Shown in pieces: positions 1,355-44,355 of a stretch of DNA of 44,355 nucleotides. Each line of letters begins with the position of its first letter. Positions within the stretch are counted from its first letter, which is position 1. The notes under the pieces are model-generated. The model did no database searches. It saw only the letters and a program-made list of their open reading frames with translations, and was not told the DNA's origin. A program made the position numbers and the translations under genes. This stretch comes from Escherichia coli (lineage in GTDB: Bacteria > Pseudomonadota > Gammaproteobacteria > Enterobacterales > Enterobacteriaceae), in assembly GCF_044324785.1 (NCBI RefSeq), contig NZ_CP172130.1; one strand, 5' to 3'.

Positions 1355-1468
1355 CCTTTTCACTGTGATGCAGGATAGGGCAAACGCCGTAAAATGACGT
1401 CATTGACGCCATTTTACGGCGTTTGCCCGGTAACCTACAGTCGGTTCTTATTGGAGAATTTTATGAAA
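1355..1468. promoter_or_regulatory. oriT-like / beta-origin-like element, copy A of a ~110-bp inverted repeat pair; contains a perfect 19-bp palindrome
   Basis: GGGCAAACGCCGTAAAATG...CATTTTACGGCGTTTGCCC palindrome; about 85% identical in inverted orientation to 40331..40443 next to taxA; ends in GGAGAATTTT-ATG. Confidence 0.5.
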
Positions 1469-39792: not shown

Positions 39793-40334
39793 ATCTCCAC
39801 TTTATTTGAAACAGTTCTCCCTTTACATAACATAATGTAATTCTCAAACTGATTCTTAAGATTAAAAATTTCTGTTGTAAGACGCTCCGCATCCTGATAG
39901 AAACCATCTTTATCAAGAACCCTGGTCTGATCATTAACAATGATATAATGGAAATTACGACCGATCTTATCAATTGAATTACGGCAACGATTCATCATCA
40001 GCAGTTCCTGGTCAAAGAAATCCAGTTCATTTTCAAGTGTCGTCTGTATGCGGTAACGACATTCTCGTGATAACGTCCATCCGTGACGATTAGCAGCTCT
40101 TTCAATATCAGCCCTTTGTTTACCTGTTAAGTACATCGTTGTTTTGATAAAATCATTATTATCAAAAAACGTATTTATATCCTTACTGACAGCTTTACTT
40201 TTTAATAAAGCATTTGCTAAAAGTTTCATGCCTTTAGCTACTGTTAAAGCTGGTTCATCCGGATAAAGAGTTTTAAGGCAATCCAGCAAATCATCATGCT
40301 GATTTTCATCAATTCTGAATTGAACTTTTTTCAT
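39789..40334 (-). CDS. taxA: Relaxosome accessory protein
   Basis: 181 aa from the ATG preceded by GGAGAA; the 23-codon extension in the ORF track is the translated inverted repeat. Confidence 0.65.
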   Translation of the reverse strand: MKKVQFRIDENQHDDLLDCLKTLYPDEPALTVAKGMKLLANALLKSKAVSKDINTFFDNNDFIKTTMYLTGKQRADIERAANRHGWTLSRECRYRIQTTLENELDFFDQELLMMNRCRNSIDKIGRNFHYIIVNDQTRVLDKDGFYQDAERLTTEIFNLKNQFENYIMLCKGRTVSNKVEM

Positions 40335-40443
40335 AAAATTCTCCAACAAGAACCGACTGTAGGTCACCGGGCAAATGTTGCGGAATGGCGTCAGAGACGT
40401 CATTTTGCAGTGTTTGCCCTATCCTGCATCGCAGTGAATCTGG
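40331..40443. promoter_or_regulatory. oriT-like / alpha-origin-like element, copy B of the inverted repeat pair
   Basis: About 85% identical (inverted) to 1355..1468, including the GGGCAAAC...GTTTGCCC palindrome and the shared GGAGAATTTTATGAAA translation start. Confidence 0.5.
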
Positions 40444-40659
40444 CGCCGCTCATAAATTGTGCTTGAGCATCAACAAAAATGCAAAAAGGCTGATGTTGTC
40501 ATGGCTGAACATACGTACGTCTGCGACCGGAAACCCGATCAATGCGGTAAGGACAGTGCCGTCAGGTTCGCTCCGCGAACGGTCTGGCAGGAAGCGCAAG
40601 CGCAGTCCCGCGCAATATATCAGAAAGCACCTCCCGAAATACGGGAGGGCTTCGGCTAT

Positions 40660-40932
40660 TCAGCTAAGGTTGCTCTGTTCAGGTTGCTGAGTGTAGCCTT
40701 CCATGCCCTGACGGGCATCAAAAAGCCAGCGCCGGAAGTTACTCATTCTTTCAAGGTTAGCTTTGCTTGGTTTTTTGCCACGATTACCACTTAATATCCG
40801 CCAGACTCGTATTCCTGCTTTATTAGTCCAGTGCAGAACAATTTCTCCTTTGCTGTTAAAAGCAAGAGAAAAGCGTACAGCGCCTTGCCGCAATTCTCCA
40901 CTGACAAAGGACACAAAATCATGTTTTGTCAT
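40660..40932 (-). CDS. Hypothetical small protein (90 aa), presumed leading region
   Basis: Fourth of four tightly packed small ORFs downstream of a strong promoter. Confidence 0.45.
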   Translation of the reverse strand: MTKHDFVSFVSGELRQGAVRFSLAFNSKGEIVLHWTNKAGIRVWRILSGNRGKKPSKANLERMSNFRRWLFDARQGMEGYTQQPEQSNLS

Positions 40933-40944
40933 AAAGCCTCCGGT

Positions 40945-41142
40945 TTATTTATCTGTTCTCTTTTGTGTCTTTTTTTCCAGTGCTTTTCTGAGTAATGCCA
41001 TATACTCAGGAAAGACATGGAATGGCATCAAAGGGAAAACCGGACGCCCACCCTTTTCAACGTCATTTATTGCTGATAATATGCGTTCCGACATTTTATT
41101 CCTCGCAATAGAATCAGGTGTCACGGTATCAGGTTGCCCCAC
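40945..41142 (-). CDS. Hypothetical small protein (65 aa)
   Basis: Tightly packed small ORF in the same string. Confidence 0.4.
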   Translation of the reverse strand: MGQPDTVTPDSIARNKMSERILSAINDVEKGGRPVFPLMPFHVFPEYMALLRKALEKKTQKRTDK

Positions 41143-41163
41143 AACCTGATACCATCTTTATCT

Positions 41164-41343
41164 TTACTTTATTAACTTCTCAATTGCTTCTTTTTTTGCT
41201 TTCTCCTGTTCTGATGGTGGGTATGCAAGGTCATACCAGTTATCAATACAATGAATAACTCTTTCTTTAGATAATCCACATTGCTCAAACCAAAATTTTA
41301 TATTTCGGTTTAATGATGCTTTTGCGCTAAACTCTCTTTCCAT
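41164..41343 (-). CDS. Hypothetical small protein (59 aa)
   Basis: MEREFSAKASLNRNIKFWFEQCGLSKERVIHCIDNWYDLAYPPSEQEKAKKEAIEKLIK; found by manual translation (under the ORF-track cutoff). Confidence 0.35.
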   Translation of the reverse strand: MEREFSAKASLNRNIKFWFEQCGLSKERVIHCIDNWYDLAYPPSEQEKAKKEAIEKLIK

Positions 41344-41385
41344 TTTCAGACCTTTACTAAAAGGGGGAATATCCCCCCTGATTAA

Positions 41386-41715
41386 TTAGTAGTAAGAAGA
41401 AAATCGATGTTTTTCTTCCGGTAGAGTTTTATACGCAGTTTCAAAATCTTCGATTTTGATTGCCAGCTCATCACCAAAATCTTTTATCTGACGCTTAAAA
41501 CATTCACCAGTAAAATCATTTAAAACGGGAGTTTTAAAGCCGACCATTGAATCGGTATATTCTGAATTGGCGCGAATCTCGCGAACGGTGACGGTTTTTT
41601 TACCGTGAACAGAAAGAACCTGGTAGAAGGTTACATTGGTTTGCTCATAGCCCCATGATGATACAAAGATATCACCAACAGAGACAGTATCATTTTTAAA
41701 AGTTAATACTTTCAT
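41386..41715 (-). CDS. Hypothetical protein (109 aa), first gene behind duplicated promoter-operator-leader copy 1
   Basis: Start directly preceded by GGGAGCTAAA and a conserved leader hairpin. Confidence 0.5.
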   Translation of the reverse strand: MKVLTFKNDTVSVGDIFVSSWGYEQTNVTFYQVLSVHGKKTVTVREIRANSEYTDSMVGFKTPVLNDFTGECFKRQIKDFGDELAIKIEDFETAYKTLPEEKHRFSSYY

Positions 41716-41805
41716 TTTTAGCTCCCGCCCAGCTTGGGCTCTGGATGAAAGAGAACCTGTTTCCCTTTCCTGTGTTTTATTATACCTGCATTTGCAGGTA
41801 TGGCA
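41716..41805 (-). promoter_or_regulatory. Promoter-operator-leader cassette, copy 1 (TTGCCA-16 bp-TATAAT with ACCTGCAAATGCAGGT palindrome; leader hairpin GCCCAAGCTGGGC)
   Basis: About 90 bp, roughly 90% identical to 42627..42716. Confidence 0.6.
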
Positions 41806-41807
41806 AG

Positions 41808-42029
41808 TTATTTTTTTACCAGCCTGTAAGACGGATGCATATTTGCTAATAACAATAAATACTGATATTCACCAATAGATAAAGAACGACTGGCCTTACC
41901 TGCACTTTCTTTCATCTGCCAGGAATTCAGTTGATAACCAAAAATATCAGCAGCTTCTTTAAGAGTAAGACCTGCCGCAACCCGCGCATTCTTTACTTCT
42001 TCAGGTGTAGGTTTATTCTGCATTTTCAT
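41808..42029 (-). CDS. Small HTH (XRE-like) DNA-binding protein (73 aa)
   Basis: Helix-turn-helix signature ...AAGLTLKEAADIFGY...; overlaps the upstream 81/85-aa ORF by 17 nt. Confidence 0.55.
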   Translation of the reverse strand: MKMQNKPTPEEVKNARVAAGLTLKEAADIFGYQLNSWQMKESAGKASRSLSIGEYQYLLLLANMHPSYRLVKK

Positions 42030-42270
42030 CCCCTTTTGTCAGACAATCACACAAAACCCCATTATCCAGAAGCATCAATGATGCCAGGTTGAGTTTTTCG
42101 TCCATTATCAATTTTCTTACTGTTTTCCTGCTTTTAGTTTTATCAATCGTCTTAACATATTTTAAGACGTGAAAAACCGTATCCCCATCTTCATCCATCG
42201 TTCTGATTACATAGGAGTAATTACCTCTGTTTTTCTTAATTATCTTATCTTTATCCATATTATTCCTCAT
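42013..42270 (-). CDS. Hypothetical small protein (81-85 aa) translationally coupled to the HTH gene
   Basis: Probable start at 42258 (GAGGAA then ATG, MDKDK...). Confidence 0.45.
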   Translation of the reverse strand: MRNNMDKDKIIKKNRGNYSYVIRTMDEDGDTVFHVLKYVKTIDKTKSRKTVRKLIMDEKLNLASLMLLDNGVLCDCLTKGDENAE

Positions 42271-42271
42271 A

Positions 42272-42300
42272 ACTAAAAAAGGGGCTTAATGCCCCTTTTT
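42272..42300 (-). terminator. Intrinsic terminator hairpin, plausibly bidirectional
   Basis: AAAAAGGGGCATTAAGCCCCTTTTTT. Confidence 0.6.
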
Positions 42301-42302
42301 AT

Positions 42303-42626
42303 CTATAACACGGTATGTAACCCTGTTTCCTGTGTAAATAAACGCGCTAACTGATCACAATAGATATTATCGAATCTTGAAATATCTTTAACTTCAGCAC
42401 CACGTACACGAGAAAATTTCACCTGGTACGTATCAGTAAAATCCAGTTTAATTTTTACTAAGTTGATGCCTTTCATTGCAAAATTTGACGGCAAACGGAA
42501 AGTTAACCCACACTCACCGTTTTCATCAAAGTAAGAAAAACTTTTAGCACCAGTCATAACAATAAAACGATTACCACCAAGTTGACGTAAAATCTCTGTG
42601 GCTACAGATTTAGCGTAGTTTTGCAT
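42303..42626 (-). CDS. Hypothetical protein (107 aa) behind promoter-operator-leader copy 2
   Basis: Start preceded by GGGAGGTTAAA and the conserved leader hairpin. Confidence 0.5.
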   Translation of the reverse strand: MQNYAKSVATEILRQLGGNRFIVMTGAKSFSYFDENGECGLTFRLPSNFAMKGINLVKIKLDFTDTYQVKFSRVRGAEVKDISRFDNIYCDQLARLFTQETGLHTVL

Positions 42627-42716
42627 TTTTAACCTCCCGCCCACTTTGGGCTCTGGATGAAAGAGAACCTGTTTCCCTTTCTTGTGTTTTATTATACCTG
42701 CATTTGCAGGTATTGC
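42627..42716 (-). promoter_or_regulatory. Promoter-operator-leader cassette, copy 2 (TTGCAA-16 bp-TATAAT with the same palindrome and leader hairpin)
   Basis: Direct repeat of 41716..41805. Confidence 0.6.
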
Positions 42717-42771
42717 AAATTTTTAATGCTCTCGCTCTGACTGTAAACAGTCAATCATTTGATGATTAATC

Positions 42772-43053
42772 TTAGCGCAAATCTGCGATCTGATAGACTT
42801 CGCTGCTTTCCCTTCTTCCAACGGCAATAACGAGTAAAACGACTTTCTCATCAATGACTTGGTATACAAGTCTGTAGCCAGATGCACGAAGTTTGATTTT
42901 ATAGCGATCAGCATGACCATGTAACCGGGCTGCGGGTACGCGTGGATTTTCCAGCCGTTCTGCCAGTTTCTTTTTGAATTGTTCACGGATGGTGTGGCCG
43001 AGTTTCTGCCATTCCTTCAGTGCTCTACGGTCAAAAGCCAGTTCATAGGTCAT
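42772..43053 (-). CDS. stbE: RelE/ParE-family toxin of a type II toxin-antitoxin pair
   Basis: 93 aa; RelE-like sequence (…YKIKLRASGYRLVYQVIDEKVVLLVIAVGRRE…); 11-nt overlap with the upstream antitoxin gene. Confidence 0.8.
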   Translation of the reverse strand: MTYELAFDRRALKEWQKLGHTIREQFKKKLAERLENPRVPAARLHGHADRYKIKLRASGYRLVYQVIDEKVVLLVIAVGRRESSEVYQIADLR

Positions 43054-43294
43054 CCAGGTTAACCTTCACAATTTCCGGGTTTTTCATGCGCTCATCAGCA
43101 ACAGCGTTTAACTCAGCATCTTCAGCGAGTTCCCGATAGTAGGCGTAAAGTTTTGGTGGAACGCAATAGAACGCCGGTTCGTTTCGGTTCAGGATCGCAA
43201 CAGCGTCCCCTTCACCTTCAGCTACGGTTCCCATAGGATTTTTTTTCAGGTCAGTAATACTGGCCGCTGTGGTTGTCAGAATTTGATAGCTCAT
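43043..43294 (-). CDS. stbD: RelB/Phd/YefM-type antitoxin
   Basis: 83-aa acidic protein immediately upstream of and overlapping the RelE-like gene. Confidence 0.75.
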   Translation of the reverse strand: MSYQILTTTAASITDLKKNPMGTVAEGEGDAVAILNRNEPAFYCVPPKLYAYYRELAEDAELNAVADERMKNPEIVKVNLDDL

Positions 43295-43767
43295 AAGCCC
43301 TCCGCTTGTCTCATTGGCATAATAGCATCTTTAAAAGCACTCTTAAAAGTGCTTATGTTGAGAAAAACATCAGAACAGGTGAGATATGGCTCTTTCCGAC
43401 ATCGCCTTAAAACGCTCTGTAACGCGTTCTGAGCGTTTTTTCCCGTTTCGTTGTAGTCAGCTACGGTTTAACGGTTTTTAACGCCGCTCAACGCTTTTTA
43501 GCGGCCTTGTTGCTGTGATCTGTTGCCATGATCCGGATAGGAGTTCAATCTTGATCAAAATTTCCTCAAGGCAACGACTGTTTTGTAAATACCCTCTAAA
43601 ACGCGCTGTATCGCATTCTGAGCGATTTTTTCGATTTCGCATGTTTTCACCATGGTTGTATCGAACGAAGCGGCAGAAAGCGATTCAGGGCTTCTCAGTG
43701 AAAGATCCAAAAAGGATCAATCAACGGATCGTATGAGCTGAACTCTTCTGGTTTTGAGAAAGGAGAC

Positions 43768-43825
43768 ACCGCTCGCCGCAGCCGAACGACCGAGCGTAGC
43801 GAGTTAGTGAGCGAGGAAGCGGAAT
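43768..43825 (+). other. Segment resembling the ColE1/pMB1 region CCGCTCGCCGCAGCCGAACGACCGAGCGCAGCGAGTCAGTGAGCGAGGAAGCGGAAG (possible single-strand initiation / primosome assembly site)
   Basis: Recognised from memory of pBR322/pUC sequence, with a few mismatches. Confidence 0.4.
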
Positions 43826-43936
43826 AGCACAGGGATTACATTAGGCACTTACGCACAGTGGTTAAAAAATGAGCATATTGTTTTTATGTGTGGTTGTCTT
43901 GGTTCAGAGTGATCTGTCCTCCGGGTTTACGCAAAG

Positions 43937-43945
43937 TTATCCACA
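43937..43945 (+). promoter_or_regulatory. Consensus DnaA box TTATCCACA flanking the iteron origin
   Basis: Perfect 9-mer; a second near-match CATCCACAG lies at 44178..44186 directly after the last iteron. Confidence 0.5.
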
Positions 43946-44045
43946 GGCGCTGTGCATTTAAAAAACTTATCTTTTCTTCTTGATCTTAAAAACTTAAAAA
44001 CTTAGAGCGTCGTAACATTATGATAAATATAATAAAAAAACGCTA

Positions 44046-44177
44046 AACATGAGAGGATTTTTAACGTAAGGTGAGAGGATCTTTAACATAAGGTGAGAAG
44101 ATTTTTAAGTAAGGGTGAGAAGATTTTTCACTAAAGATGAGAGGATTTTTAACGAAAGGTGAGAGGATTTTTAAGTA
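44046..44177 (+). repeat. Six tandem 22-bp iterons of a gamma-type (pi-dependent) replication origin
   Basis: AACATGAGAGGATTTTTAACGT / AAGGTGAGAGGATCTTTAACAT / AAGGTGAGAAGATTTTTAAGTA / AGGGTGAGAAGATTTTTCACTA / AAGATGAGAGGATTTTTAACGA / AAGGTGAGAGGATTTTTAAGTA; AT-rich flanks. Confidence 0.85.
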
Positions 44178-44260
44178 CATCCACAGGCTAAAAAAATATC
44201 ATGTAAAACATGATGTTATGAATTCATTTTGATGTGAATACATAAAGATCTTTATATCTA

Positions 44261-44316
44261 AAGGTGATAAGTTTTTTAACTAAAGGTTGTAATGTGTTGT
44301 TGTCATACAACCTTTA
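44261..44316 (+). promoter_or_regulatory. pir promoter/operator: iteron-like box AAGGTGATAAGTTTTTTAACTA plus 10-bp inverted repeat AAAGGTTGTA-N14-TACAACCTTT
   Basis: Lies just upstream of the pir ATG across the circular junction. Confidence 0.6.
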
Positions 44317-44355
44317 TAGGGTTATCATTTAGCCAAGTGATACGACTTATCTATA

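Follow-up and report, generated by a model that had tools for sequence, protein, structure and literature searches.

Repeated promoter–operator–leader cassettes and a candidate helix–turn–helix repressor in the leading region of IncX1 and related plasmids

Repeated promoters held by a repressor are known from the Aca-acr systems, from KorC of IncP plasmids and from the CUP/ArdK system of IncN plasmids. In all three, genes for establishment are expressed in a burst on entry. The Aca proteins are essential brakes on the very strong promoters of counter-defence genes. KorC, described for IncP-1 RK2/RP4 (kle/klc), IncU RA3 and IncL pOXA-48, is a small helix–turn–helix (HTH) repressor whose palindromic operator lies between the -35 and -10 elements of duplicated strong promoters; the genes under its control harm the host when derepressed (kil-kor logic), and zygotic induction is reported as demonstrated for RP4 in PMC7314908. 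In the IncN plasmids pKM101/R46, repeated CUP modules stand ahead of unrelated leading-region genes (ardA, ardB and the ccg genes) and are controlled by the plasmid-encoded repressor ArdK/ArdR, which also controls itself; binding of ArdK to CUP sequences has been demonstrated (PMC6289460). Here, we describe two promoter–operator–leader repeats, cassettes A and B, in a 44,355 nt stretch of Escherichia coli DNA (contig NZ_CP172130.1, hereafter the window), which resemble CUP in being repeated ahead of unrelated genes and KorC targets in their operator position. We consider it about 70 % probable that each repeat is a self-contained expression cassette under an adjacent 73-aa HTH repressor (HTH73), forming a leading-region regulon with a burst of expression on plasmid entry. 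As judged by sequence comparison, the family to which the cassettes belong is distinct from the known systems in sequence, repressor and leader. No description of it was found in the literature searched, and its operator sequences appeared in no paper searched.

The cassettes, the genes associated with them and the predicted transfer origin are as follows, with the strand in brackets and the basis of each cassette feature at the end of the line.

41713–41812 (-): cassette A, comprising promoter, operator, leader, Shine–Dalgarno (SD) sequence and start codon of open reading frame (ORF) ORF109; direct repeat, promoter scan 11/12
41801–41806 (-): -35 element TTGCCA, cassette A; promoter scan
41779–41784 (-): -10 element TATAAT, cassette A; promoter scan
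41782–41801 (no strand assigned): operator palindrome ATACCTGCA-AA-TGCAGGTAT, 20 bp, cassette A; repeat and sequence search
41747–41769 (-): hairpin 1 (HP1), cassette A, GAAAGGGAA/UUCUCUUUC, 9 bp with a 5-nt loop; RNA fold
41727–41739 (-): hairpin 2 (HP2), cassette A, GCCCA-AGC-UGGGC, abutting the SD; RNA fold
41722–41726 (-): SD sequence GGGAG of ORF109; read from the sequence
42624–42724 (-): cassette B, comprising promoter, operator, leader, SD and start codon of ORF107; direct repeat, promoter scan 10/12
42713–42718 (-): -35 element TTGCAA, cassette B; promoter scan
42691–42696 (-): -10 element TATAAT, cassette B; promoter scan
42694–42713 (no strand assigned): operator palindrome, 20 bp, cassette B, same sequence as in A; repeat and sequence search
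42659–42681 (-): HP1, cassette B; RNA fold
42639–42651 (-): HP2, cassette B, GCCCA-AAG-UGGGC; RNA fold
41386–41715 (-): ORF109 (YagA-like), 109 aa, cargo of cassette A
42303–42626 (-): ORF107, 107 aa, cargo of cassette B; phrog_9437
41808–42029 (-): HTH73, MqsA/XRE-like HTH protein of 73 aa (71 aa as annotated), candidate repressor of both cassettes
42013–42258 (-): ORF81, conserved partner, overlapping the start of the HTH gene
40420–40427 (+): MOBP-type nic-like motif TATCCTG/C (predicted nick at the slash), adjoining taxA and the relaxase gene

The repeat and its promoter/operator geometry are directly established. A repeat search aligned 41715–41812 with 42627–42724, giving 98 nt of 92 % identity read on the minus strand, slightly more than the ~90 bp noted in a first-pass annotation made from the sequence alone. 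That annotation also called the promoters near-consensus, and TTGCCA-16-TATAAT (11/12) and TTGCAA-16-TATAAT (10/12) are indeed the top two sigma-70 matches on the minus strand between 40.8 and 44.3 kb. The palindrome, described there as 16 bp within the spacer, is real but larger: with 9-bp arms and a 2-nt centre it covers 20 bp (in full ATACCTGCAAATGCAGGTAT, the candidate HTH target of IncX1) and runs, in both cassettes, from the last base of the -35 through the spacer to the third base of the -10. Its exact 16-mer core occurs only twice in the 44-kb window, at the two cassettes; weaker palindrome matches at 24.2 and 36.9 kb, both within coding sequence, were judged to be chance. Transcription is predicted to start 6–8 nt past the -10. 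The leader of 66 or 67 nt is followed by GGGAG and the ATG; the single leader hairpin reported before GGGAG corresponds to HP2 (GCCCA/UGGGC), and a second, HP1, begins 9 nt past the -10. The two cargo genes, previously described as not obviously related, are unrelated by BLASTP (E = 0.21).

The leading-region position of the cassettes is equally direct, as both lie between oriT and the replication origin of an IncX1 conjugative resistance plasmid, the near-identical Salmonella plasmid NZ_CP104480.1 (44,362 bp) being typed IncX1/MOBP/MPF_T. Because the nic motif beside taxA is on the plus strand, the plus strand would be transferred, with 40.4 to 44.3 kb entering the recipient first, and would therefore be the template of the minus-strand cassette genes. 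Every gene from 40660 to 43294 is on the minus strand, templated by the presumed transferred strand. The leading region presumed in the first-pass annotation is thus borne out, and its assignment to 40.4–44.3 kb is supported, with the nick position predicted from the motif.

We propose the following mechanism. Each cassette would carry a strong sigma-70 promoter whose entire spacer forms a 20-bp, two-fold symmetric operator, occupied by a dimer of the plasmid's own MqsA/XRE-type HTH protein. RNA polymerase would be blocked, since the site covers the last -35 base, the spacer and half of the -10. The transcript would open with a conserved 5' leader, with HP1 at its 5' end and HP2 directly before a strong SD. 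On entry of the plasmid into a repressor-free cell both promoters would fire, and the build-up of HTH73 would then shut them down, in a zygotic induction limited by negative feedback. Once the plasmid is established, expression of the cargo genes would stay low, perhaps together with that of the downstream virBR.

The cassettes belong to a large family. Full-length copies were found by blastn in 534 plasmid records, and tblastn with the HTH protein found homologues in 4,243 plasmids, including IncX3, X4, X5, I2 and L/M. Every lineage inspected shares one design: -35, a 20-nt site fused to the -10, 9 nt, HP1, HP2, SD and ATG. Relatives carry between two and nine copies per plasmid, and copies stand ahead of at least 13 unrelated protein families. 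A first search with a covariance model (R1) built from 21 leaders covered 16 sources and retrieved, in 15 of them, 30 copies at E <= 3e-6, all on the gene-sense strand, with a marginal 31st match in L016 (E 0.19). Four strong matches lay outside the training set, plus two weaker ones in L014, and exactly two copies lay in the window (cassette A, 41712–41778, 68 bits; cassette B, 42624–42690, 74 bits). Further copies surfaced in later searches. Counted by locus, the 30 or more sense-strand copies fall in 13 of 19 searched loci, which include IncX1/3/4/5, IncI2 and IncL/M. In L004, a plasmid of Salmonella Weltevreden, and L005, a MOBC plasmid, the full cassettes are divergent; the genes behind them encode homologues of ORF107 and ORF109 and a J-domain protein, and one is disrupted by an insertion sequence (IS); cassette-driven ORF107 homologues are present in L004 and in L013, a second IncI2 lineage.

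Relationship to the IncN system was examined at the sequence level. Cassettes A and B had no blastn match in IncN R46 (word size 7) and R1 had no match there, while HTH73 compared with ArdK at E 2.2, with ArdR at E 21, and gave no alignment to the adjacent 79-aa ORF. The R46 CUP repeats are about 110–300 nt long, compared with 98 nt for the IncX1 cassette, and the two-hairpin leader is specific to the cassette family, unlike IncN CUP. Homology to CUP/ArdK, hinted at by the IncI gene name ccgAII, was therefore rejected, leaving IncN CUP as a functional analogue only. The name belongs to a gene directly downstream of a leader-only relative, about 82 % identical and without the operator promoter, in the leading region of about 540 IncI-type PLSDB records (for example L002:5001-5066 of the IncI-gamma/K plasmid pN270). 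As for KorC, HTH73 gave no alignment with the pOXA-48 KorC-like protein L011:6042-6308, a comparison limited to that protein, with RP4 KorC not included. Plasmid pOXA-48 has both systems: its KorC site is reported at one promoter only (PMC12365149), whereas the cassette-type 20-nt site is present nine times. HTH binding is predicted here in the position that KorC occupies at its own operators.

The argument for HTH73 rests on the way in which operators and HTH proteins change together. All cassettes of one plasmid carry one common operator. Across lineages the flanks ATA(C/G)...(C/G)TAT and the fusion to the -10 are constant, and the core varies (CTGCA, CATCA, GACTT, ATCTA, GGTCAG or CGCAC). 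The palindromic 20-nt sites are as follows.

IncX1, L004 and L005: ATACCTGCA-NN-TGCAGGTAT
IncX3 and IncX5: ATACCATCA-NN-TGATGGTAT (IncX3 core CATCA)
IncX4: ATACGACTT-AA-AGGTCGTAT
IncI2 (L010): ATACATCTA-AA-TAGATGTAT
Second IncI2 lineage (L013): ATAGGTCAG-TT-CTGACCTAT
L015: ATACCGCAC-AT-GTGCGGTAT

The presumed recognition helices (GYQLNSWQMKES, GFTLSAWQAKET, GVGLRTWQKKEE, GVGLSTWQKKEA, SMSPRTWRRKEE and GMSLSNWQRKES) group the HTH proteins into the same classes, near-identical helices 3 going with a common operator and diverged ones with different operators. This co-variation is a direct observation; HTH protein identity and half-site identity are correlated with a Spearman coefficient of 0.71, uncorrected for phylogeny, over pairs that are not independent. 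Cargo of the ORF107-like, ORF109-like and J-domain types is found behind differing operators in different plasmids, which indicates that operators have changed at their existing sites, together with the other copies on the plasmid and in parallel with the HTH protein.

The IncL/M-type plasmids L011/L017, L014 and L019 encode a homologue with two HTH domains in tandem, and their cassette promoters carry, in the operator position, a 20-nt site that is non-palindromic but conserved across copies. The asymmetric site ATATGGCTCATTAGACGTAT is present nine times in pOXA-48, where none would be expected by chance, and at least four times in L014; another, GGTATGTCTTTTGTCGTATAAT, has five copies in L019. 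Three lineages (L018, L019 and L020) were fetched after the operator–HTH rule had been formulated and all three fit, L018 and L020 falling in the palindromic class as predicted. We regard this match of site symmetry to HTH architecture as the strongest argument, since a homodimer would fit a palindrome and a linked pair of non-identical HTH domains would fit an asymmetric site, and from it we infer that an HTH dimer sits on the IncX1 palindrome. The shared repressor postulated in the first-pass annotation, with the HTH protein as its candidate, thus gains comparative support from operator classes that track the recognition helix and from the three later lineages.

The HTH family profile matched the MqsA HTH domain in the PDB (3fmy, E 3.7e-4; 7xi5, 4e-4) and Aca3 (9vt3, 3e-3), with a weaker match to 434 repressor, and HTH73 as a single sequence weakly matched a PHROG annotated as 'transcriptional repressor' (5e-4). 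MqsA and the Aca repressors, the closest solved relatives of the domain, are XRE-type dimers whose palindromic sites overlap strong promoters. Unlike MqsA, HTH73 is without the zinc-binding toxin-binding domain, and the similarity is confined to about 40 residues. In IncX3, X4, I2, L005 and pOXA-48 the HTH gene is the last of a cassette-led operon, which implies negative autoregulation.

Orf20 of pOXA-48 (DNDJGHEP_0014, an XRE-like regulator) is a true homologue of HTH73, to which its two halves align at 45 % and 41 % identity. Like HTH73, it is encoded at the head of the leading region, and its gene lies behind a cassette-type promoter; unlike HTH73, it is a tandem double HTH with an asymmetric presumed site. 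The gene can be deleted only with complementation in trans and is essential, with a kil-like phenotype in its absence: recipients of an orf20-deleted plasmid elongate and cease dividing, and silencing by CRISPR interference leads to plasmid loss (PMC12365149; PMC12361523). Deletion of orf19, the gene upstream, had no phenotype, and insertions in it were depleted (PMC12365149). Both 2025 papers state that the targets and binding site of Orf20 are unknown (PMC12365149; PMC12361523), and the link between Orf20 and the cassettes proposed here appeared in none of the literature searched. The nine site-bearing cassette promoters of pOXA-48 include those of orf19-orf20, of an antirestriction gene and of the gene preceding ssb, and their derepression would offer a direct explanation of the Orf20-loss phenotype. 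The pCTX-M3 genes orf35/orf36 were considered as homologues and rejected, as they are other genes, YggA-like and specific to IncL/M.

The leader is the second conserved part of the cassette, and its structural conservation is directly established. Of 30 copies folded singly, 29 have the two-hairpin fold as their minimum-free-energy structure, and HP1 starts 9–10 nt past the -10 across copies, so that it would sit at the very 5' end of the transcript. In an arm-swap permutation test, HP1 formed from its own arms reached -9.4 kcal/mol compared with -6.4 kcal/mol for cross-lineage chimeras, and HP2 -7.9 compared with -6.1 kcal/mol (0/5000 permutations as good in either case). This alignment-free test took the place of RNAalifold, which gave nearly no consensus structure from a plain MAFFT alignment because stem lengths vary, and of a pair count; the latter, on the model-fitted alignment, found 27 double-sided changes compared with 14.8 in shuffles (0/500). 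Compensatory changes include GAAAG.../...CUUUC to GAGAG.../...CUCUC in HP1, and GCCCA/UGGGC to GCCCC/GGGGC, GUCC/GGAC, GCCGC/GCGGC and GCGCC/GGCGC in HP2. No relevant Rfam match to the leader was obtained at E <= 1 in 40300–44355. Stem-loops at the 5' terminus, such as that of ompA, stabilise mRNA, and by analogy HP1 probably stabilises or protects the cassette mRNA; HP2 probably insulates the SD, giving the ribosome-binding site a constant context whatever gene follows.

The leading-region position, with the transferred strand as template, raises the alternative that the repeats act as single-stranded DNA structures, either promoters of the Frpo/ssi type known from the leading regions of F and IncI1 or priming sites, rather than as double-stranded promoters controlled through a protein-bound operator. 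In single strands the palindrome could fold, as could the two leader hairpins, and the IncX4 and IncI2 cassettes have an extra upstream element that may be of this kind. We nevertheless think this explanation very improbable. Frpo/ssi elements are single-strand promoters, and a fold of plus-strand DNA over 41650–41900 (251 nt) gave two short local hairpins only (z = -1.5), with no long hairpin rebuilding a duplex -35/-10. The asymmetric site of the IncL/M-type plasmids excludes an element that works as a hairpin. Moreover, the leader stems contain G-U pairs, whose counterparts on the transferred strand are C-A mismatches, and in most copies the antisense strand folds less well than the sense strand, so the structure belongs to the mRNA and not to the transferred DNA strand.

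The upstream element in question is a conserved GC-rich stretch of ~300 nt, about 90 % identical between the IncX4 and IncI2 groups (L009:2184-2500 and L009:4264-4590; L010:1440-1741 and L010:4392-4693) and without counterpart in IncX1 or IncX3. Examined as a relative of Frpo, it gave a single-stranded DNA fold with z = -2.1, and blastn against the IncI1 locus found nothing similar; it may serve as a promoter or a priming site in single-stranded DNA.

The conservation of both operator and leader also bears on the possibility that recombination or gene-cassette shuffling left the duplication behind as a neutral relic, without shared regulation. Large F-type plasmids from E. albertii and E. coli do contain IS-cut remnants of the locus (L003:3431-4160 and L006:3426-4140) that retain stbDE, cassette B and a truncated ORF107 but have no HTH gene, and the IncN CUP repeats were reportedly proposed by Delver and Belogurov in 1997 to promote recombination. 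We give this explanation very little credence. The architecture is kept, with exact spacing (operator fused to the -10, HP1 at +9), across lineages that share little sequence, the operators of one plasmid change together, and substitutions in the stems are compensatory; the L006 remnant, in which the palindrome and -10 have decayed, illustrates what neutral decay looks like.

Around the cassettes, the minus strand of the window reads stbD and stbE (43294–42772), cassette B, ORF107, a terminator-like hairpin, ORF81 and the overlapping HTH gene, cassette A, ORF109, a weaker hairpin, ORF59, ORF49, ORF90, oriT, taxA and the relaxase gene. Only 1 nt separates the HTH stop codon from the -35 of cassette A. 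The remaining features are as follows.

42276–42300 (-): terminator-like hairpin AAAAAGGGGC-AUUAA-GCCCCUUUUU, strong (z = -4.0), between ORF107 and ORF81
41361–41379 (-): weaker terminator-like hairpin after ORF109
40660–40932 (-): ORF90, probable IncX1 VirBR homologue, last gene downstream of cassette A; 74% identity over 85 aa to IncX3 ORF L008:4911-5165

The small proteins of the locus offered few clues to function. Neither Pfam, NCBIfam nor PADLOC returned a match for ORF107, ORF109 or ORF81. In PHROGs, ORF81 likewise had none, and ORF107 and ORF109 fell only into families of unknown function. All 86 of 86 relatives of ORF109 are hypothetical proteins, one labelled YagA, and its confident all-beta model had no neighbour in the PDB (best E 0.095). 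Searches of PHROGs, Pfam, NCBIfam and PADLOC identified no toxin or anti-CRISPR gene among the cargo genes. StbD/StbE, considered as the palindrome binder, was rejected, as the cassettes are not linked to stbDE in other plasmids.

ORF90 shares arginines R20, R42 and R67 with VirBR, a published regulator of IncX plasmids that activates the actX/type IV secretion system promoter (PMC11214620). VirBR was considered as the HTH protein and rejected, because it is an 85-aa non-HTH protein (PMC11214620) that corresponds to ORF90. In both IncX1 and IncX3 ORF90/virBR lies downstream of a same-strand cassette, so it may be co-regulated.

Several points count against control of both cassettes by HTH73. 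For every member of the family, promoter activity and HTH binding are inferred from sequence. Taken singly, HTH73 matches its families weakly (Pfam MqsA_antitoxin, E 0.035; TIGR03830, E 0.004, below cut-off), and the two window leaders have modest folding z-scores (-1.6 and -2.2). The pair count is equivocal on register, as the 3' partner slid by -1 scores equal to the proposed pairing because a purine arm faces a pyrimidine arm, and a helix pairing part of the SD is only 59 % paired. In the IncX1 plasmid the autoregulatory loop is not evident, since the strong terminator-like hairpin separates ORF107 from ORF81-HTH and the promoter scan detected no promoter ahead of ORF81. Lastly, the operator–HTH correlation might reflect co-inheritance with another plasmid-specific factor.

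One such factor could be ORF81, whose gene runs into the start of the HTH gene and accompanies it throughout the single-HTH lineages (IncX1, L004, L005, X3, X4, I2 and L015). The protein is basic and without recognisable domain, and VirBR is an example of a small DNA-binding protein from IncX plasmids that is not of the HTH type (PMC11214620). Repression by ORF81, by an ORF81-HTH complex or by another plasmid or host protein is nevertheless unlikely, in our view. The IncL/M-type plasmids are without ORF81 yet keep the cassettes, and there the HTH alone is duplicated; the match of site symmetry to protein architecture is specific to the HTH; and in pOXA-48 it is orf20 that is essential, orf19 being dispensable in the deletion experiment described above.

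A second arrangement that would involve ORF81 is a type II toxin–antitoxin pair comparable to mqsR-mqsA, in which the palindromes would be secondary antitoxin sites and the essentiality of the homologue would reflect unneutralised toxin. The order of a small upstream gene and an overlapping MqsA-like HTH gene resembles mqsRA, the best family matches of the HTH are to MqsA, and NCBI names one homologue 'antitoxin Xre-like HTH'. Three observations make this distinctly improbable: ORF81 has no similarity to MqsR or to toxin families in Pfam, NCBIfam, PHROGs or PADLOC; the depletion of orf19 insertions together with a neutral deletion is the opposite of what a toxin gene should show (PMC12365149); and the sites occur in up to nine promoters of unrelated genes, not solely that of the pair itself. 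Repression by the HTH protein remains our preferred explanation.

The window holds further elements of transfer and replication. Two near-identical oriT-like sequences lie in inverted orientation at 40385–40440 (+) and about 1365–1433 (-), each consisting of an inverted repeat followed by GTTTGCCCTATCCTGCATC; two oriTs are also reported for R6K. From either nick, the intervening ~5.3 kb of the window, with the cassettes, stbDE, iterons and pir, would be the first to be transferred. Six 22-bp iterons (TGAGAGGATTTTTAAC...) at 44028–44199 belong to an R6K-type replication origin and lie immediately ahead of pir, which begins with the first base of the window. A 43-nt direct repeat (TAAAACGCTCTGTAACGCGTTCTGAGCGTTTTTTCCCGTTTCG, 84 % identical), located between the iterons and stbD, is present at 43408–43450 and 43597–43639, each copy with a small hairpin followed by a T-run. 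The motif CCGCTCGCCGCAGCCGAACGACCGAGCGTAGCGAGTTAGTGAGCGAGGAAGCGGAA at 43760–43830, found also upstream of the cassette regions at L005:3870-3925 and in L009 at about 1900–1950, presumably resembles the primosome-assembly-site region beside ColE1/pMB1 origins.

Beyond the IncX1 plasmid, and with a confidence somewhat short of even, we suggest that the cassettes may constitute a family-wide leading-region regulon in IncX1/X3/X4/X5, IncI2, IncL/M and relatives. Pairs of a fast-evolving MqsA-like repressor and its operator would then define plasmid-specific 'immunity classes', somewhat like the lambdoid pairs, and establishment genes would burst only in cells without a plasmid of the same class; the targets of Orf20 would be the nine cassette promoters, virBR would possibly be triggered by entry, and the leader would serve as an insulating 5' untranslated region. 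Entry control of virBR, if true, would explain its apparent silence in established hosts and would give new transconjugants a transient transfer boost. A two-hairpin leader that insulates would mean that any inserted gene is well expressed, and might make it a useful expression part. For pOXA-48, the proposed 20-nt site and the nine promoters are concrete candidate targets for the essential, uncharacterised Orf20.

The plasmid groups that carry the cassettes and the HTH gene are the main vehicles of NDM-5 (IncX3), mcr-1 (IncX4 and IncI2) and OXA-48 (IncL). Class-specific operators predict which of these plasmids would cross-repress each other's establishment genes. If the repressor does brake strong, potentially toxic leading-region promoters, it would represent a plasmid-specific weak point at which the loss of repression halts cell division.

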